Shown here: positions 2-57,450 of the stretch, piece by piece
Layout: each line of letters starts with the position of its first letter
Numbering within the stretch: position 1 is the stretch's first letter
Source: Alphaproteobacteria bacterium
GTDB taxonomy: Bacteria; Pseudomonadota; Alphaproteobacteria; Bin95
Reading direction: 5' to 3'
Assembly (NCBI GenBank): GCA_964291285.2
Contig: OZ219785.1
Coordinates: forward strand, 512,001 to 576,000
DNA length: 64,000 nucleotides
Notes under the pieces: generated by a model
What the model saw: only the letters and a program-made list of their open reading frames with translations
The model's database searches: none
Told to the model about the DNA's origin: nothing
Made by a program: the position numbers and the translations under genes

Positions 2-1114
2 CGCGGCGCCGCAGTCCGTTCCCCACAGTTCCTTGAACGGGACAAGGTCGCCGTTGTCCATCCGCCAGCTGAAGTTCTCCGCGAACTCCGTCATGGAAAT
101 CCTCAGTTCTCCCATGCGGCAGCCGTCCTCGCTCCGATCGTTCTTCCCGCACAGGCTGATCTCGTTGGCCTCCGCATTCCAGCCATCGTTGCCCCCTGCC
201 CACACCGCGACGATGTCCTTGCCGGCAAGAGCCCCGGCAAGCCACTCGAACTCGCTCAGCAAGGCGCCGTCGCGTTCCATAGCCGGCCTGAACCATGGTT
301 TGGGAGGGGTCAACCAGACTCCCGGCCGCCCCTTGTAGGTTCCGAAATAATCTCGGCCTATTCCGATGCTCAGATTGACGACCCGCGCATCGTTTCGGGC
401 GGCGTATGCGACCGCGTCTTCGGGCCGCCCGCTGTCCGAGGTCTGTATCGGCATGATCGAGGCATCGGGCGCGACGCCATGCATGTTCTTCGTCGCCTTC
501 CTGCCGGGGCTTCCGTTGCTTTGCCGGTAGGTGACCTCGAAAGGCCCCAGGCTGTTCCCTCTGGTTCCGGCCGCGATCATCGCCACATAGGTGCCGTGGA
601 CGTTCTCGTCGGACTCTGAGACCCGATTGTCCGCATTCCGCAGATGTACCGGCGACACCGCACGGTCCGCCAGGTCGGGATGGGTGAGGTCGAAGCCGTG
701 GTCGGCCACCGCAAGCCTGACGCCCGCGCCGAAATAGCCGCGCCGATACGCCTCCTCCGCGCCGATGTCGTCCAGTCCCCAGTTCACCAGATATTCGGCC
801 GTCCGGTAATTCCGGTTGTCGCGCGCGTTGGGGGTGCCGAGGTCGTGGCCCCGGAATTGAAGCGCGACGGGATTTGCCGAGCCGGGCGCCCGGGGTCCAG
901 GCGGGACGTTGCCCGGGGCCCCTCCGGGAGGGGGGCCGGCCGGGGAAAAGGAGCTGCCGCCACCGCCACAGCCCGCCGCCAGCAGGGTGCAAGACAAGGC
1001 GGCGAGCGACAGGACCAGCCCGAAGCGGCGTTGGACCTCGGCTGTTGCGCCCCTGCCCGGGTCCACGCCAGCCGGATTTCCTGCTGCAACATGGCGCCTC
1101 AAGGGAATGAACAT
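2..1114 (-). CDS. S8 (subtilisin-like) serine peptidase, probable lipoprotein; 5' part only, runs off the window
   Basis: Hand translation from ATG 1114 (GGAG upstream) gives lipobox LLAAGC-GGGG, then NWGLDDIGA, GAGVRLAVADHG (catalytic Asp), HGTYVAMIAAG (catalytic His), HGVAPDA and VVNLSIG. Absent from the ORF track because its stop lies outside the window. Confidence 0.88.
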   Translation of the reverse strand, partial: MFIPLRRHVAAGNPAGVDPGRGATAEVQRRFGLVLSLAALSCTLLAAGCGGGGSSFSPAGPPPGGAPGNVPPGPRAPGSANPVALQFRGHDLGTPNARDNRNYRTAEYLVNWGLDDIGAEEAYRRGYFGAGVRLAVADHGFDLTHPDLADRAVSPVHLRNADNRVSESDENVHGTYVAMIAAGTRGNSLGPFEVTYRQSNGSPGRKATKNMHGVAPDASIMPIQTSDSGRPEDAVAYAARNDARVVNLSIGIGRDYFGTYKGRPGVWLTPPKPWFRPAMERDGALLSEFEWLAGALAGKDIVAVWAGGNDGWNAEANEISLCGKNDRSEDGCRMGELRISMTEFAENFSWRMDNGDLVPFKELWGTDCGAA

Positions 1115-1303
1115 GCTCTCGCTCCCATGCCGTGCCGGCAGCCCTGACATGACCGTGACATCGAGTGGTGCAACCGTCTGCCTTTCGGGAAAGAATGCAC
1201 CCCGAGGGGGAGGAACGGAACCCCCCAGGGCGAATTAATTGTCTGCCTTTGGGCCATGTTGAGGTGGGGTCCGGGGTGGCTATTTTTTTCTTGATATGGC
1301 AGT

Positions 1304-3100
1304 GTGCCGGTCATGGCGAGGTTTCTGTTTGCGGGTGTTTGGGTTGATCTTCGCGCGGTCACGGTGCGCCCGACCTGGGGGGCACGGGAGCACCGGCGCT
1401 GGGACGATTTGGTAGCGGCGCACCACTATCTGCGGTTCCACGGCATCATCGGCAAGGGTCTGCGCCATGTCGCGGTTCATGGCGAGGCCTGGCTTGCCCT
1501 GGTTGGCTGGCAGCCTGGAGCGTTCAAGGTGGGAGCGCGGGACCGCTGGATCGGGTGGTCGGCGGAGCAGCAGTTCCGTCGCCTGCATCTGGTTGCCAAC
1601 AACTCGCGCTTTGTCATCCTGACGCCTGAGCGGGTTCCCAACCTTGCCTCGCGGGTGCTGGGGCTGAGCGTGCGGCGGCTGTCGCAGGACCTGCGGGCGG
1701 CGCATGGCTATCCGGCTGTTGTGGCGGAGACGTTTGTGGACGTCTCGCGCTTCGCCGGCACCTGCTACCGCGCGGCCAACTGGCGCTCTTTGGGTCTGAC
1801 GCGCGGCTTTGCCCGCGAGCCCGGAGGGGTGGCGCGCTGGCGTCACCACGGCCAGCCCAAGGAGGTCTTCGTGTTCGAACTGACACACGGCGCCCCCGAG
1901 GCGCTGAGCCATCCCGAGATACCGGCAGACTGGAACGCTGAGCAGCACACCGAGCCGATGGCGGCGCCCCGGCTGCGCAGCCTGTTCGAGTGTTTGGGCG
2001 AGGTGCCCGAATACCGCCATGCCCGGGGCAAGCGCTATGCGCTCACCACCATTCTGACGCTGGCCGTTGCCGCCCGGCTTGCCGGATACCGGGGTGTGAA
2101 CGCCTTCGCCCAGTTCGCCGCCCTGCTCTCCCAGAAGCAACTCAAGGCGGTGGGCGCCTTCTGGAGCCCATCCAGGCAGTGCTACACGCCGCCGGCGGTC
2201 ACCACCTTCCACAACATCCTCGCCGCCCTGCCGCCACAGACCCTGGACAATGCCATCGGCCAGTGGGCCGGACAGCACAGCAGTGCGCACGCGCCTGTGG
2301 CCATGGACGGAAAGGATTTGCGCGGTGCCTCGAAGCAGAGCGAAGACCGGCGCAGGAGGATGGTCGCTGCGGTGGCGCATGACACCGGCGTGGTCCTCGG
2401 GCAGGTCGAAGTCAGCTCCAAAAGCAACGAAATCCCGGCCGTGCGCGAACTCTCCAGCGGTCTCGACCTCACAGGCCGGATCGTCACCATCGATGCGATG
2501 CACGCCCAGCACGAGACCGCGCGTTGCCTGCTCGAACGCCGTGCCGACTACGTGGTCAGCGCGGTGAAGGGCAACCAGCAGACCATCCTCGAAGACCTCA
2601 AGGCGATCGACTTCAGCGATGCGCCCTGGCACGAAACCGTCGACAAGGGCCATGGTCGCATTGAGCGCCGACGCTGCGCCGTCGTCGACCTCTGCGCTGC
2701 CGAGTGGGACGGCTACGCCCACCTTCACGGGCGCCGCCAGGCAATGCGCATGGAACGCGAGCGCAAGATGCTCAAAACCGGCAAGCGCAGCATCGAGGTC
2801 ACCTGGAGCCTGACGTCGCTTGGCGCAGAGCGAGCCGGCCCCAAGGAGCTTCTCGATCTGGTGCGCAACCACTGGCACATTGAGAACCGTGTGCACTATG
2901 TGCGTGACTTCACCTATGACGAAGACCGTTGCCGGGCATATGTGCGCCACCTGCCCGGAAATCTGGCCTGCTTGAGCAACGCGGCCATCGCTATCGTGCG
3001 CTGCGACGGACGCTTCCGATATGTACCCGAGGCCAACCGGCACTACGCCGCCCGCGCCCAAGAGGCCCTCGACGCGATTATGATCGCGCCCAGAGGCTGA
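1304..3100 (+). CDS. ISAs1-family transposase with N-terminal DUF4338 (DruA/Mom-like) domain
   Basis: C-terminal ISAs1 motifs MDGK, KSNEIP, IDAMH, VKGNQ, GHGRIE, HWHIEN. N-terminal HHYL, NNSRF, NLASRVL, ETFVD..F.GTCYRAANW are typical of DUF4338. The start could instead be ATG 1313. Confidence 0.9.
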   Translation: MPVMARFLFAGVWVDLRAVTVRPTWGAREHRRWDDLVAAHHYLRFHGIIGKGLRHVAVHGEAWLALVGWQPGAFKVGARDRWIGWSAEQQFRRLHLVANNSRFVILTPERVPNLASRVLGLSVRRLSQDLRAAHGYPAVVAETFVDVSRFAGTCYRAANWRSLGLTRGFAREPGGVARWRHHGQPKEVFVFELTHGAPEALSHPEIPADWNAEQHTEPMAAPRLRSLFECLGEVPEYRHARGKRYALTTILTLAVAARLAGYRGVNAFAQFAALLSQKQLKAVGAFWSPSRQCYTPPAVTTFHNILAALPPQTLDNAIGQWAGQHSSAHAPVAMDGKDLRGASKQSEDRRRRMVAAVAHDTGVVLGQVEVSSKSNEIPAVRELSSGLDLTGRIVTIDAMHAQHETARCLLERRADYVVSAVKGNQQTILEDLKAIDFSDAPWHETVDKGHGRIERRRCAVVDLCAAEWDGYAHLHGRRQAMRMERERKMLKTGKRSIEVTWSLTSLGAERAGPKELLDLVRNHWHIENRVHYVRDFTYDEDRCRAYVRHLPGNLACLSNAAIAIVRCDGRFRYVPEANRHYAARAQEALDAIMIAPRG

Positions 3101-3237
3101 TACCCCACCCCCCACCGCAATACAGGCTCGGGCCGAAGAACGGCGCAGCAAAACAACTGCGCCCGTCGAGGACGAAAACACTGGACCGCGGCATCAAGAA
3201 ACCACCATGACGGCGGCCAGAAACGTCTGGGGTTCCC

Positions 3238-3653
3238 CAAAACCTTCATTGTCGGGCGGGTCGGCCACCCCGTATCATGAAAACAGGTGCCGGCCGCGCG
3301 GGCGGGACTTCGGGCTTTTACGGGGTTGCCTACCGGTCAGGGTCCGCAAGACGGGCGCCGCAGATGGCGAGTATCGGACGCCTCGGGAGCAGTGCTTTGG
3401 CGGGGAGGTTTTTTTTGCGCCCGATCCCCAACAATTTTCACGGCAAAACCTTCATTGTCGGGCGGGTCGGCCACCCCGTATCATGAAAACAGGTGCCGGC
3501 CGCGCGGGCGGGACTTCGGGCTTTTACGGGGTTGCCTACCGGTCAGGGTCCGCAAGACGGGCGCCGCAGATGGCGAGTATCGGACGCCTCGGGAGCAGTG
3601 CTTTGGCGGGGAGGTTTTTTTTGCGCCCGATCCCCAACAATTTTCACGGCAAA
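3238..3653. repeat. Tandem dimer of a 206-bp non-coding mini-element inside ISAs1 copy 1
   Basis: Units 3238-3443 and 3444-3649 (CAAAACCTTCATTG...TTTTCACGG) are followed by CAAA. A solo copy lies at 57245-57450. Confidence 0.95.
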
Positions 3654-3743
3654 CACCGGCAGCCAGACCGACATCACTCAGACAAAGCCCGCGGTTCGAC
3701 TAAAAATTTTCCCTGGCGGCAGGGGCTTGCGCGAAGAATTTTG

Positions 3744-3770
3744 TTTAGCTAAATAGAGTGGACTAAATAG
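3744..3770. promoter_or_regulatory. Probable autoregulatory operator of the toxin-antitoxin pair
   Basis: Palindrome TTTAGCTAAA (3744-3753) and repeated CTAAATAG immediately upstream of the antitoxin start. Confidence 0.5.
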
Positions 3771-3785
3771 CGGGAAGGCTGTTCC

Positions 3786-4025
3786 ATGCTCACCGTCAAC
3801 ATGCACGAAGCCAAGACGCATCTGTCGCGCCTCGTCAAGGCCGCCGCTGAAGGCGAACCCTTCATCATTGCGCGCGCGGGCAAGCCGGTGGTCAAGGTCG
3901 TCGCTCTGGACGCGCCGGAACCGGGCTCCCGGATCGGGTTCATGGCCGGTGAGATATCCGTGCCCGACGACTTCGACAGCATGGGCGCCAGCGAGATCGA
4001 GTCCATGTTCCAGGACGATGCGTGA
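3786..4025 (+). CDS. Phd/YefM-family antitoxin
   Basis: VNMHEAKTHLSRLV..A..GEPFIIARAGKPV signature; GTGA overlap with the downstream toxin. Confidence 0.92.
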   Translation: MLTVNMHEAKTHLSRLVKAAAEGEPFIIARAGKPVVKVVALDAPEPGSRIGFMAGEISVPDDFDSMGASEIESMFQDDA

Positions 4026-4408
4026 AATATCTTCTAGATACGCATCTGCTCCTCTGGGCGGCAACCGGGTCGGCGCGGTTGCCGGCGGAGGCGCGCAGGA
4101 TTATCGATCTCCCGGAGACCGAACCGGCCGTCAGCGCCGCTTCGCTCTGGGAAATAGCGATAAAAAGCGGGCTGGGGCGAACCGATTTCCACATCGATCT
4201 GCGCTTGCTTCGGCGCAGGTTGTCGGTTCACGGCTACACCGAATTGCGGGTAACCGGAGCCCATGCGGCGGAGATATGTCTTTTGCCGCCGATTCATCGC
4301 GATCCCTTCGACCGCATGCTGGTTGCGCAAGCCCGGGTTGAAGGTATCACGCTCCTGACGGCCGACAGCATCGTCGCGCGCTATCCGGGTCCCATCCGCG
4401 CGCTATGA
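4022..4408 (+). CDS. vapC: VapC PIN-domain toxin
   Basis: LLDTHLLLW, SAASLWEIAIK, HRDPFDRMLVAQA motifs. Confidence 0.92.
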   Translation: MKYLLDTHLLLWAATGSARLPAEARRIIDLPETEPAVSAASLWEIAIKSGLGRTDFHIDLRLLRRRLSVHGYTELRVTGAHAAEICLLPPIHRDPFDRMLVAQARVEGITLLTADSIVARYPGPIRAL

Positions 4409-35161: not shown

Positions 35162-35392
35162 TCAGTAGCTCTTCGGCAGGTCCAGCTCCTTCTCGGCGAT
35201 GAAGGAGCGCGCGAACTGCTAACTTACTGGCGCGATCCGGGCGATCCAGATCTCCCTGAGCCAGCGCTCCACATGGTACTCCTTGGCGTAGCCCATGCCG
35301 CCATGGGTCAGGATGGCCCGTTCACAGGCCTCGTGGCCCACCTCCGCCGCCAGGTATTTCGCGGCATTGGCCTACGGCCCGCACGCCTCGCC
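35162..35392 (-). pseudogene. Diverged 3' fragment of the acyl-CoA dehydrogenase gene
   Basis: Aligns to about 23085-23315 with many synonymous changes and two in-frame TAG codons. Confidence 0.88.
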
Positions 35393-35496
35393 GATGGCCC
35401 GCGCGATGGATCGGCAAGTCGGTCGGCGACCAGATCGAGATCGATGCCCCGGGCGGCGCGCGCTACTACGAGACCGTGAAGATCGACTACGCCTGA
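35388..35496 (+). pseudogene. Diverged 3' fragment of greA
   Basis: Aligns to 32641-32748 (...GTGAAGATCGACTACGCCTGA) with synonymous changes and a 1-bp insertion. Confidence 0.88.
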
Positions 35497-35595
35497 ACTG
35501 GCGGGCGCGGAGGCAGCCAGGGCGAATTAATTGTCTGCCTTTGGGCCATGTTGAGGTGGGGTCCGGGGTGGCTATTTTTTTCTTGATATGGCAGT

Positions 35596-37392
35596 GTGCC
35601 GGTCATGGCGAGGTTTCTGTTTGCGGGTGTTTGGGTTGATCTTCGCGCGGTCACGGTGCGCCCGACCTGGGGGGCACGGGAGCACCGGCGCTGGGACGAT
35701 TTGGTAGCGGCGCACCACTATCTGCGGTTCCACGGCATCATCGGCAAGGGTCTGCGCCATGTCGCGGTTCATGGCGAGGCCTGGCTTGCCCTGGTTGGCT
35801 GGCAGCCTGGAGCGTTCAAGGTGGGAGCGCGGGACCGCTGGATCGGGTGGTCGGCGGAGCAGCAGTTCCGTCGCCTGCATCTGGTTGCCAACAACTCGCG
35901 CTTTGTCATCCTGACGCCTGAGCGGGTTCCCAACCTTGCCTCGCGGGTGCTGGGGCTGAGCGTGCGGCGGCTGTCGCAGGACCTGCGGGCGGCGCATGGC
36001 TATCCGGCTGTTGTGGCGGAGACGTTTGTGGACGTCTCGCGCTTCGCCGGCACCTGCTACCGCGCGGCCAACTGGCGCTCTTTGGGTCTGACGCGCGGCT
36101 TTGCCCGCGAGCCCGGAGGGGTGGCGCGCTGGCGTCACCACGGCCAGCCCAAGGAGGTCTTCGTGTTCGAACTGACACACGGCGCCCCCGAGGCGCTGAG
36201 CCATCCCGAGATACCGGCAGACTGGAACGCTGAGCAGCACACCGAGCCGATGGCGGCGCCCCGGCTGCGCAGCCTGTTCGAGTGTTTGGGCGAGGTGCCC
36301 GAATACCGCCATGCCCGGGGCAAGCGCTATGCGCTCACCACCATTCTGACGCTGGCCGTTGCCGCCCGGCTTGCCGGATACCGGGGTGTGAACGCCTTCG
36401 CCCAGTTCGCCGCCCTGCTCTCCCAGAAGCAACTCAAGGCGGTGGGCGCCTTCTGGAGCCCATCCAGGCAGTGCTACACGCCGCCGGCGGTCACCACCTT
36501 CCACAACATCCTCGCCGCCCTGCCGCCACAGACCCTGGACAATGCCATCGGCCAGTGGGCCGGACAGCACAGCAGTGCGCACGCGCCTGTGGCCATGGAC
36601 GGAAAGGATTTGCGCGGTGCCTCGAAGCAGAGCGAAGACCGGCGCAGGAGGATGGTCGCTGCGGTGGCGCATGACACCGGCGTGGTCCTCGGGCAGGTCG
36701 AAGTCAGCTCCAAAAGCAACGAAATCCCGGCCGTGCGCGAACTCTCCAGCGGTCTCGACCTCACAGGCCGGATCGTCACCATCGATGCGATGCACGCCCA
36801 GCACGAGACCGCGCGTTGCCTGCTCGAACGCCGTGCCGACTACGTGGTCAGCGCGGTGAAGGGCAACCAGCAGACCATCCTCGAAGACCTCAAGGCGATC
36901 GACTTCAGCGATGCGCCCTGGCACGAAACCGTCGACAAGGGCCATGGTCGCATTGAGCGCCGACGCTGCGCCGTCGTCGACCTCTGCGCTGCCGAGTGGG
37001 ACGGCTACGCCCACCTTCACGGGCGCCGCCAGGCAATGCGCATGGAACGCGAGCGCAAGATGCTCAAAACCGGCAAGCGCAGCATCGAGGTCACCTGGAG
37101 CCTGACGTCGCTTGGCGCAGAGCGAGCCGGCCCCAAGGAGCTTCTCGATCTGGTGCGCAACCACTGGCACATTGAGAACCGTGTGCACTATGTGCGTGAC
37201 TTCACCTATGACGAAGACCGTTGCCGGGCATATGTGCGCCACCTGCCCGGAAATCTGGCCTGCTTGAGCAACGCGGCCATCGCTATCGTGCGCTGCGACG
37301 GACGCTTCCGATATGTACCCGAGGCCAACCGGCACTACGCCGCCCGCGCCCAAGAGGCCCTCGACGCGATTATGATCGCGCCCAGAGGCTGA
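35596..37392 (+). CDS. ISAs1-family transposase with N-terminal DUF4338 domain
   Basis: Translation identical to 1304-3100. Confidence 0.9.
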   Translation: MPVMARFLFAGVWVDLRAVTVRPTWGAREHRRWDDLVAAHHYLRFHGIIGKGLRHVAVHGEAWLALVGWQPGAFKVGARDRWIGWSAEQQFRRLHLVANNSRFVILTPERVPNLASRVLGLSVRRLSQDLRAAHGYPAVVAETFVDVSRFAGTCYRAANWRSLGLTRGFAREPGGVARWRHHGQPKEVFVFELTHGAPEALSHPEIPADWNAEQHTEPMAAPRLRSLFECLGEVPEYRHARGKRYALTTILTLAVAARLAGYRGVNAFAQFAALLSQKQLKAVGAFWSPSRQCYTPPAVTTFHNILAALPPQTLDNAIGQWAGQHSSAHAPVAMDGKDLRGASKQSEDRRRRMVAAVAHDTGVVLGQVEVSSKSNEIPAVRELSSGLDLTGRIVTIDAMHAQHETARCLLERRADYVVSAVKGNQQTILEDLKAIDFSDAPWHETVDKGHGRIERRRCAVVDLCAAEWDGYAHLHGRRQAMRMERERKMLKTGKRSIEVTWSLTSLGAERAGPKELLDLVRNHWHIENRVHYVRDFTYDEDRCRAYVRHLPGNLACLSNAAIAIVRCDGRFRYVPEANRHYAARAQEALDAIMIAPRG

Positions 37393-37529
37393 TACCCCAC
37401 CCCCCACCGCAATACAGGCTCGGGCCGAAGAACGGCGCAGCAAAACAACTGCGCCCGTCGAGGACGAAAACACTGGACCGCGGCATCAAGAAACCACCAT
37501 GACGGCGGCCAGAAACGTCTGGGGTTCCC

Positions 37530-37945
37530 CAAAACCTTCATTGTCGGGCGGGTCGGCCACCCCGTATCATGAAAACAGGTGCCGGCCGCGCGGGCGGGAC
37601 TTCGGGCTTTTACGGGGTTGCCTACCGGTCAGGGTCCGCAAGACGGGCGCCGCAGATGGCGAGTATCGGACGCCTCGGGAGCAGTGCTTTGGCGGGGAGG
37701 TTTTTTTTGCGCCCGATCCCCAACAATTTTCACGGCAAAACCTTCATTGTCGGGCGGGTCGGCCACCCCGTATCATGAAAACAGGTGCCGGCCGCGCGGG
37801 CGGGACTTCGGGCTTTTACGGGGTTGCCTACCGGTCAGGGTCCGCAAGACGGGCGCCGCAGATGGCGAGTATCGGACGCCTCGGGAGCAGTGCTTTGGCG
37901 GGGAGGTTTTTTTTGCGCCCGATCCCCAACAATTTTCACGGCAAA
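37530..37945. repeat. Tandem dimer of the 206-bp mini-element inside ISAs1 copy 2
   Basis: Same sequence as 3238-3653. Confidence 0.95.
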
Positions 37946-38055
37946 CACCGGCAGCCAGACCGACATCACTCAGACAAAGCCCGCGGTTCGACTAAAAATT
38001 TTCCCTGCGGAGGCAGCCCATGTCCTCCAATACCACTGCCATATGCTGTATCTTG

Positions 38056-39507
38056 GATCGTGCCCCCGCGGGTGGTGTAAGAGCCTGGCGTCCGTAGCGG
38101 TGTCCGGCGGGTAGGGCCGGAACGCTCAGGCTGCCACGGCGGGCAACTTGACGGTTGTATTGTCGCTCACGGGAGCGATGGATTCCAGCGTCATGTATCT
38201 GGCTCTCTGGACTGCCCATTCATCGTTCTGCTCGAGCAGGATTGCGCCGATCAGCCGGGTGATGGCGTCCTCGTTGGGGAAGATGCCGACGGTGTTTGTG
38301 CGCCGCTTGATCTCGCCGTGGAGGCGTTCGAGCGGGTTTGTCGAGTGCAGCTTGGCGCGGTGCGCGGCCGGGAAGGTCATGTAGGCGAGAACATCGTGCT
38401 CGGCCTCGTCCATGATGGCGGCGAGCTTTGGCGCCTTGGGCCTGAGCTGGTCGGCGACCTGGCGCCACTGGGCGGAGGCGCTGTCTGCATCCTCCTGGGC
38501 GAAGGCGGTAGTGACGAAGGCGGAGACGACGCGCCGGCCCTGCTTGCCGGCATGGGCGAGCAGGTTGCGCATGAAGTGGACGCGGCATCTCTGCCAGGTG
38601 GCGCCGAAGATGCGGGTGGCGGCGGCCTTCAGGCCCTTGTGGTCGTCGGAGATCACCAGCTTGACGCCGCGCAGGCCGCGGCGGGCGAGCGAGCGCAGGA
38701 AGTCGGTCCAGAAGGTCTCGGCCTCGGACGCGCCGATCGCCATGCCGAGCACCTCGCGCCGGCCCTGATCGTTGACCGCCACCGCGATGGTGACCGCGAC
38801 CGAGACGACGCGCCCGGCCTCGCGCATCTTCACATAGGTCGCGTCAAGCCAGAGATACGGCCAGTCGCCCTCCAGCGGCCGGTCGAGGAAGTCGCGGATC
38901 TTGTCGTCGATCTCGCCGCACAGCCGCGACACCTGGCTCTTGGAGATGCCCGACATGCCCATCGCCTGCACCAGGTCGTCCACCGAGCGGGTCGATACGC
39001 CCTTGATGTAGGCCTCCTGGATCACCGCCGTCAGCGCCTTCTCCGCCATCCGCCGCGGTTCAAGGAAGCCCGGGAAGTAGCTCCCCTTGCGCAGCTTCGG
39101 GATCTTCAGTTCGACCGTGCCGGCCCGCGTCTCCCAGACCCGGTCCCGGTAGCCGTTGCGCTGCGTGATCCGGTCCGGCGAGCGCTCGCCGTGCGCGGCG
39201 CCCGCAAGGCCCTCAACCTCAAGCGCCATCAGACGCGCGGCCGTGAACCCGATCATCTCGCGAAGCAGGTCGGCGTCGGAACTCTTCTCCAACAGCGCCC
39301 GCAGGGTCATCATGTCGGTGGTGGTCATCGTGGTACTCCTCCGGTCAGGTGGACTGTGACAGCCCAACCCTAACCGGCACCGCGATGGCCTCCGCTGTGG
39401 GTAAGTGGCCCGCCGCCGCCTGACTCCAGACGGTCGCGGCGGCGGGCCACTTACCCACAGCTACCACCGGAAGCTTCAGCTCCTACACCACCCCTGGGGA
39501 CACGACC
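38056..39507 (-). mobile_element. IS256-family insertion sequence
   Basis: Imperfect terminal inverted repeats GATCGTGCCCCCGCGGGTGGTGTAAGAG and GGTCGTGTCCCCAGGGGTGGTGTAGGAG; 8-bp target duplication GTATCTTG (38048-38055, 39508-39515). Confidence 0.94.
38126..39328 (-). CDS. IS256-family transposase
   Basis: [51 protein letters not shown]. Confidence 0.95.
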
Positions 39508-57244: not shown

Positions 57245-57450
57245 CAAAACCTTCATTGCCGGGCGGGTCGGCCACCCCGTATCATGAAAACAGGTGCCGG
57301 CCGCGCGGGCGGGACTTCGGGCTTTTACGGGGTTGCCTACCGGTCACGGTCCGCAAGACGGGCGCCGCAGATGGCGAATATCGGACGCCTCGGGAGCAGT
57401 GCTTTGGCGGGGAGGGGTTTTGTGCGCCCGATCCCCAACAATTTTCACGG
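57245..57450. mobile_element. Solo copy of the 205/206-bp non-autonomous mini-element
   Basis: Same length as the units in ISAs1 with about 6 substitutions; interrupts the HEPN gene between LLPY and (Q)EVLRF. Confidence 0.88.

Follow-up and report, generated by a model that had tools for sequence, protein, structure and literature searches.

A mobile ISAs1-family insertion sequence whose transposase carries a predicted GNAT domain resembling phage Mu Mom

The DNA analyzed here, referred to as the window, is a stretch of 64,000 nucleotides from an Alphaproteobacteria bacterium (GenBank assembly GCA_964291285.2, contig OZ219785.1, positions 512,001 to 576,000 of the forward strand). It holds two copies of an insertion sequence (IS) whose transposase has an unusual N-terminal domain. 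We consider it very probable that this transposase is one protein in three parts, a GNAT domain resembling Mom of phage Mu, a flexible linker, and a Tn5-like DDE transposase, and that the element encoding it is mobile, with 12 copies and 10-bp target duplications. The features of the first copy, in window coordinates, are the following.

1226-3715, + strand: IS copy 1, complete, ISAs1 family, 2,490 bp, with limits set at the points where identity among the 12 genomic copies ends
1226-1243, + strand: left terminal inverted repeat, CAGGGCGAATTAATTGTC, beginning CAGGG
1304-3100, + strand: transposase open reading frame (ORF), 598 aa from the GTG at 1304 and probably 595 aa from the ATG at 1313
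1343-1918, + strand: Mom-like GNAT domain, approximately residues 14-205, with the Pfam DruA/DUF4338 core at 36-169, placed from Pfam and the structural model
1943-1969, + strand: interdomain linker of low confidence, residues 214-222
1988-2269, + strand: helical DDE_Tnp_1-associated region, residues 229-322 (PF13808), with model helices at 247-323
2297-2941, + strand: DDE catalytic core, residues 332-546 (PF01609), with D335, D397, and then E527
3238-3649, + strand: a 206-bp dispersed repeat, present twice in tandem and captured by the IS downstream of the stop codon, ahead of the right end
3698-3715, + strand: right terminal inverted repeat, ending CCCTG

A first-pass annotation of this locus had proposed an ISAs1 transposase joined in one frame to a DUF4338 domain, within a 598-aa ORF bearing a long N-terminal extension. 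The ORF is present as it was described, the motif quoted there, ETFVDVSRFAGTCYRAANWRSLGLTRG, occupies residues 142-168, and Pfam and NCBIfam matches bear out the fusion. In the Pfam scan, PF14236 (DruA/DUF4338) matched residues 36-169 at 70.2 bits (cutoff 27), spanning only positions 67-220 of the 297 in the profile, followed by DDE_Tnp_1_assoc (PF13808) at residues 229-322 with 54 bits and DDE_Tnp_1 (PF01609) at 332-546. The NCBIfam ISAs1 transposase equivalog NF033564 covered residues 250-564 at 211.6 bits against a cutoff of 70. The ATG at 1313 is the likelier start codon, because a length of approximately 595 aa is shared by the identical database representative and by most full-length homologues in the list.

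A model of the full-length protein reached a predicted local distance difference test score (pLDDT) of 81.9, with linker residues 214-222 below 50. Its best structural matches were Tn5 transposase entries (4DM0 and 1MUH, E ~1e-10, approximately 400 aligned columns). The helical region at 229-322 is presumably the DNA-binding part of the transposase, and D335, D397, and E527, assigned from motifs, likely form the DDE triad. Among 23 full-length fused homologues (37-89% identity), D335 and D397 were invariant and E527 was kept in at least 90%.

The first-pass annotation delimited the ORF correctly, while the unit that transposes is larger and extends over 1226-3715 (2,490 bp). A generic inverted-repeat scan missed the imperfect IS termini, which were recovered by comparing copies; the left end agrees with the reverse complement of the right end at 13 of 18 positions, the CAGGG tip included. 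Searched at the DNA level, the genome that contains the window (6.13 Mb, five contigs) yielded 12 full-length copies, all with the 601-codon frame open, so that the two identical copies noted earlier (1226-3715 and 35518-38007) hold for the window and not for the genome. The transposase gene is the sole gene within the IS. Membership in the ISAs1 family is indicated by the equivalog score, the DDE residues, the terminal repeats, and the target duplication, for which ISfinder gives a family range of approximately 8-10 bp. Size is the departure: ISAs1 elements normally measure about 1.2-1.5 kb with transposases of fewer than 400 aa, whereas this element measures 2,079-2,490 bp and its transposase 595 aa.

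The second copy and its duplicated target are placed as follows.

35518-38007, + strand: IS copy 2, identical to copy 1 in the window comparison
35508-35517, no strand: target-site duplication of IS copy 2, left, 10 bp, perfect
38008-38017, no strand: target-site duplication of IS copy 2, right, 10 bp, perfect

The perfect 10-bp duplication given in the first-pass annotation, CGGAGGCAGC, is thus real and belongs to copy 2 (35518-38007), with none at copy 1 (1226-3715). Across the genome, five of the 12 copies have a perfect 10-bp duplication and one a 9-bp duplication, five have swapped flanks, and one has neither. Each swapped flank matches the opposite flank of another copy, in one three-way cycle and one reciprocal pair, a pattern suggestive either of recombination between replicons mediated by the IS or of joins made at repeats during assembly. 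The cycle involves copy 1 (flanks 1216-1225 and 3716-3725), another copy on contig C1, and one on contig C4; the reciprocal pair lies on contigs C2 and C3.

Three sequencing runs of one organism from one study cover this region, and their contigs were compared over 35300-38250. In two of them (X2 and X3), one contig each joins 35506 directly to 38007, skipping 2,500 bases; this is evidence from contigs, with the sequence between the two sides left unassigned, and it reads as the presence of an empty site and not as a measured frequency. Since the skipped bases equal the 2,490-bp IS plus one 10-bp duplication, copy 2 is absent from these sister samples. The depth at the joint, 35 in X2 and 278.8 in X3, equals that of the single-copy flanks (35-39 and 279-335, respectively). 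In run X1, from which the assembly was probably made, the joint between 35506 and 38007 was not seen. The near identity of the 12 copies, the target duplications, and the empty site all support the recent transposition that had been proposed; the element is a currently mobile ISAs1-family insertion sequence. Contigs of X2 and X3 also link the right IS end (38007/38008) back to the left (35516/35518), with 7 letters in X2 (depth 191) and 10 in X3 (depth 310), joints that would fit head-to-tail tandem copies or a circular form.

To describe the N-terminal domain, residues 1-215 were modeled with AlphaFold2 from a 56-sequence alignment (A1), giving a GNAT fold with a mean pLDDT of 93.7 and a predicted template-modeling score of 0.88. 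In Foldseek, the top rank among 350,542 PDB chains went to the crystal structure of Mom from phage Mu (8BV8_B, E 1.3e-7), the other matches listed all being GNAT acyltransferases. VIA-align, which is independent of Foldseek, also placed 8BV8_B first among 48,161 chains, with a Z of 14.8 over 173 aligned residues and a root-mean-square deviation of 4.2; the next entries were generic GNATs with Z of at most 12.2. In the full-length model, Mom was again the top GNAT match, behind the Tn5 transposase. The resemblance to Mom-type GNAT enzymes suspected in the first-pass annotation therefore extends to the fold, with Mom as the closest solved structure. A prediction of the GNAT domain as a homodimer scored 0.24 against a mark of 0.42 and weighs neither way. 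Among predicted viral structures (BFVD), the best matches were small phage GNATs at 18-23% identity, and a protein named Mom appeared at rank 5. Some phage proteins of approximately 500-560 aa in BFVD, named endonuclease-like or homing endonuclease, also hold a region matching the GNAT model (E 1e-6 to 1e-5), a hint that fusion of Mom-like GNATs extends to other DNA-cutting enzymes of mobile elements.

The accessible part of a recent study of Mom (PMC13219725, Nature Communications 2026) describes it as a GNAT that depends on Gly-tRNA(Gly) and modifies adenine at N6 in double-stranded DNA, in the context S-A-S. According to the same part, activity requires H58, Y59, R111, S124, D149, R151, and Y159; a helix-turn-helix (HTH)-like insertion at residues ~175-209 is indispensable, its deletion abolishing activity; and the enzyme is a tight dimer, its monomeric W48A variant having only residual activity. 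In both local and global alignments, hhalign paired H41-Y42 of the window protein with H58-Y59, S116 with S124, D146 with D149, R149 with R151, and Y155 with Y159, all identical in residue, in a pairing that is profile-based and not a superposition of coordinates. By this alignment the predicted domain has identical residues at six of the seven essential Mom positions. The motif that the first-pass annotation likened to a Mom region indeed aligns with Mom D149, R151, and Y159.

These residues are also conserved. Over 150 cluster representatives, H41 was kept in 97%, Y42 in 88%, S116 in 96%, D146 in 92%, R149 in 76%, and Y155 in 93%. In the 23 full-length fused proteins, H41, Y42, S116, and Y155 were invariant and D146 and R149 were kept in at least 90%, alongside the DDE residues. 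The equivalent positions of Mom were kept in 108-111 of 111 Mom-family sequences. Further links at the sequence level come from relatives of the window protein. Pfam Mom (PF25680) was matched by two of the 56 sequences in A1 and, in a scan of four relatives, by three: P0162 at 28.1 bits, above the gathering cutoff of 27.1, and P0195 (23.4 bits) and P0259 (23.7 bits), both below it. P0162, a fused transposase of full length, shares 48% identity with the window protein in the N-terminal domain. Among language-model clusters, once those of DruA were set aside, 24 of the 30 nearest named ones were the Mom set (best score 0.90), a result at the level of a lead.

Several observations weigh against treating the domain as a plain equivalent of Mom. 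BLASTP of the N-terminal domain against Mu Mom was not significant (best E 2.4), and the family profile found no PDB sequence (best E 0.72); a single-domain sequence search of the PDB gave chance matches only (best E 0.41), so that Mom was recovered from the PDB by structure and not by sequence. The hhalign comparison of the family with the 111 Mom-family sequences was weak (P 0.0047, probability 7%, 111 columns), reciprocal hidden Markov model searches reached only E ~1e-3 and in small sets, and the window protein itself did not match Pfam Mom at E <=0.1. Generic N-acetyltransferases match the model too, with VIA-align Z of 11-12. The HTH-like insertion of Mom is missing, the domain being ~23 residues short in the global profile alignment, and the model shows only a short beta-hairpin (169-181) at that site. 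Finally, R102, conserved in 98% of the 150 representatives, lies one position off Mom R111 in a gapless register, and hhalign places a gap at R111. The window protein is not a member of the Mom family, as it has neither the HTH-like insertion nor a Pfam Mom match.

The domain is widespread. At E <=0.001, it was found in 6,136 clusters (50% identity), 3,084 of them at E <=1e-10. A total of 3,026 proteins of 328-1,047 aa match the N-terminal domain, and most of the best 120 have all three domains and a length of ~595 aa. Named matches are called 'ISAs1 family transposase' and come from at least two phyla. The domain was matched in 11 of 41 related genomes; of 251 genomes sampled from the class, 18 had a match to the full protein. 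ISAs1 transposases without the GNAT domain in these 251 genomes match only residues ~215-565, at 28-36% identity, which makes the fused lineage a distinct branch.

The genome of the window also carries the domain outside the ISAs1 fusion. An IS66-family element of 3.2 kb, present in 8 copies, has a separate 329-aa DUF4338 ORF after its transposase, and a related 3.6-kb element with the domain is present in 4 copies; their loci are C3:1376600-1380100 and C2:205000-208950. Both domains are ~36% identical to that of the window and keep the set of essential residues except for D146, which is replaced by Glu. With the ISAs1 fusion and the IS66-family ORF, one genome thus pairs the domain with two transposase families that are unrelated to each other.

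Taken together, these data lead us to propose that the GNAT domain would be a working acyl- or aminoacyl-transferase and no relic, and from the conservation of its predicted active site we lean towards catalytic activity. As a whole, the reading of the protein as a Mom-like GNAT tethered to a transposase and working locally as a transferase stands at roughly even odds. Because the domain lacks a DNA-binding insertion and is joined to a transposase that recognizes specific sequences, it would most likely act locally, on nucleic acid in the transposase-DNA complex, with the DNA-binding region of the transposase standing in for the insertion of Mom. If the analogy with Mom holds, an aminoacyl-tRNA could serve as donor in place of acetyl-CoA. 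DNA is a tentative candidate for the substrate, at less than even odds. The enzyme would then act on the transposon ends or the target DNA, and its modification would serve to mark that DNA, to protect it, or to regulate transposition. Protection from restriction, end marking, and defense, the roles put forward in the first-pass annotation, are likewise hypothetical. Both IS tips carry C-A-G in the orientation of the transferred strand (1226-1228 and 3713-3715), which fits the S-A-S context of Mom; in a genome of 68% G+C such a fit could easily arise by chance, and we give it little weight. The strongest form of the proposal, that a very large family of bacterial transposons hypermodifies adenine at or near its ends through a tethered Mom-type enzyme, possibly with an aminoacyl-tRNA donor, as a self-made epigenetic mark controlling or protecting transposition, and that DruA would likewise modify nucleic acid, is speculative and on present evidence rather improbable.

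Of the other explanations, a non-catalytic role survives best, although we regard it as unlikely: the domain could be a structural module, for example for multimerization, or could bind DNA or tRNA as a signal. The loss of the insertion that is essential in Mom agrees with this idea, and so do the need of transposases for multimers and the dimeric state of Mom, with the residual activity of W48A, described in the available part of PMC13219725. What it does not readily accommodate is that active-site positions, beyond those of the core, are kept at 76-98% over 150 diverged clusters and are kept too in the unfused ORFs linked to IS66. Such conservation in fused and unfused forms would be difficult to account for if selection were not acting on a pocket.

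Slightly less well placed, and in our judgment improbable, is an ordinary acyl-CoA-dependent acetyltransferase acting on protein, tRNA, or a small molecule, whether its own transposase, a host nucleoid protein, or a target like those of tRNA-acetylating GNAT toxins. Many acetyltransferases do match the model (Z 11-12; Foldseek E ~1e-5), and a GNAT fold does not reveal its substrate, as the accessible text of PMC13219725 points out. Against this, Mom came first in both structure searches, with 173 aligned residues compared with 134-174 in the other entries shown, and for a toxin there is no antitoxin-like partner within the IS. The beta4-alpha3 loop is a further point of difference. Acetyl-CoA GNATs have a glycine-rich pyrophosphate-binding loop after strand beta4, while the predicted loop here (residues 107-116, TPERVPNLAS) is free of glycine and thus without this motif; the stretch of Mom aligned with it likewise has no glycine-rich loop.

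That the gene is a Druantia-like anti-phage defense gene riding on the IS appears very unlikely. Its Pfam family carries the name of DruA, and DUF4338, there termed a GNAT, is found at the N-terminus of DndF in defense loci in the portion of PMC10853773 available to us. Here, by contrast, the domain is fused in frame to a transposase and resides in the only gene of the element. No PADLOC DruA model matched the window protein at E <=0.1, and relatives reached E ~1e-3 at best. The surroundings of the 12 copies all differ, and druB-druE are absent among the window neighbors, DruE not having been searched for elsewhere in the genome. The neighbors of the IS in the window are an S8 peptidase gene on one side and, on the other, an FAA-hydrolase-family gene and the following pair.

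3786-4408, + strand: Phd/YefM antitoxin (79 aa) and PIN-domain toxin (128 aa), directly downstream of the IS, with overlapping stop and start codons

The protein is therefore in a Pfam family named after DruA but lies outside any Druantia system. Lastly, the idea that the fusion is an error of annotation or assembly, or a chance event of recent date now on its way to decay, has nothing besides the unusual length of the protein in its favor and is practically dismissed by 12 intact 601-codon frames, the 3,026 database proteins matching the N-terminal domain, and the retention of both halves down to 37% identity.

The copies of the element are not all of one length. Eight measure 2,490 bp, one 2,284 bp, and one 2,079 bp, and the other two measure 3,013 and 4,834 bp; these differences arise because 0, 1, or 2 copies of the 206-bp repeat lie downstream of the stop codon, ahead of the right end. 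The repeat is not in the 2,079-bp form, and the 3,013- and 4,834-bp copies correspond to this form, enlarged by other insertion sequences nested close to its right end. The same ~0.93-kb insertion sequence is nested in the 4,834-bp copy (C2:682930-687763) and in the 3,013-bp copy on contig C3, and one of the two has a further element of ~1.8 kb; both nested elements are multi-copy in the genome. In the window, the 206-bp repeat also occurs at 37530-37941 and 57245-57450. Genome-wide, BLAST returned 39 pieces, of which 17 lie within IS copies (mostly 100% identical) and the others outside (16 near-full-length and 6 partial, 92-97% identity). Copies of the repeat are bordered by CAA(A) on either side, and a single promoter-like site is found on the + strand of every unit within the IS. 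A search of Rfam over 1100-3900 gave no match at E <=1, and the folding of the repeat was no better than that of shuffled sequences, whichever strand was used (z 0.70 and 0.17). One possibility is a non-autonomous element of small size.

Databases already contain many such fusions, named simply as transposases, and so the gene itself is not new. What is new is its reading as a transposase-tethered Mom-type enzyme, with residue-level support. The first-pass annotation knew of no functional characterization of such a fusion, and our literature search likewise found none, although the supplementary tables of PMC10853773 and PMC13219725 may list fusions. In the literature searched, no relationship between Mom and DruA was found, nor anything linking ISAs1 to DruA or Druantia, nor a fold or function for Druantia DruA or a link from DruA to GNAT. 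Searches joining ISAs1 with acetyltransferase gave nothing relevant, those joining Mom-like with transposase gave prophage work only, and a preprint on YprA and Druantia is without the word DruA. The chemistry of Mom, with a charged tRNA as donor and double-stranded DNA as acceptor (PMC13219725), and the far larger Mom-like group on transposases together provide a clear hypothesis for the role of the domain. By analogy, the element may use a chemical mark on nucleic acid in its way of life. The finding is also a starting point for the function of Druantia DruA, and an active, multi-copy, one-gene element is a good test system.

Compared with canonical ISAs1 elements, the element shares the equivalog match, the DDE residues, imperfect terminal repeats, and 10-bp duplications, and differs by ~210 extra N-terminal residues in the transposase and a length of 2.08-2.49 kb. 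The transposase part has the IS4-family Tn5 transposase as its top structural match, at only 14% identity, and by analogy with Tn5 it may use cut-and-paste hairpin chemistry. Type I Druantia DruA belongs to the same Pfam family, PF14236, but the window gene lies in an IS, has no PADLOC DruA match, and covers the profile only in part. The DndF fusions in the available portion of PMC10853773 place the same domain on another DNA-associated conflict protein, where its partner is a defense ATPase and not a transposase. The likeness to Mu Mom (8BV8, PF25680) consists of the GNAT fold, the six identical essential residues, a similar C-terminal strand-helix signature, and the fact that both proteins are encoded by a transposable element. 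In contrast, the window domain is without the HTH-like insertion and is fused to a transposase where Mom is free-standing; the two are ~13-17% identical in structural alignments, and the window protein is below the Pfam Mom threshold.

We know of no precedent for a DDE transposase with its own nucleic-acid-modifying domain, and the links between DNA modification and transposition that are known to us use host enzymes. The nearest functional analogy is Dam methylation, which controls IS10 and IS50, base modification at the transposon ends tuning the binding of the transposase. There the modifying enzyme is supplied by the host; in the present element the transposase itself would contain it.

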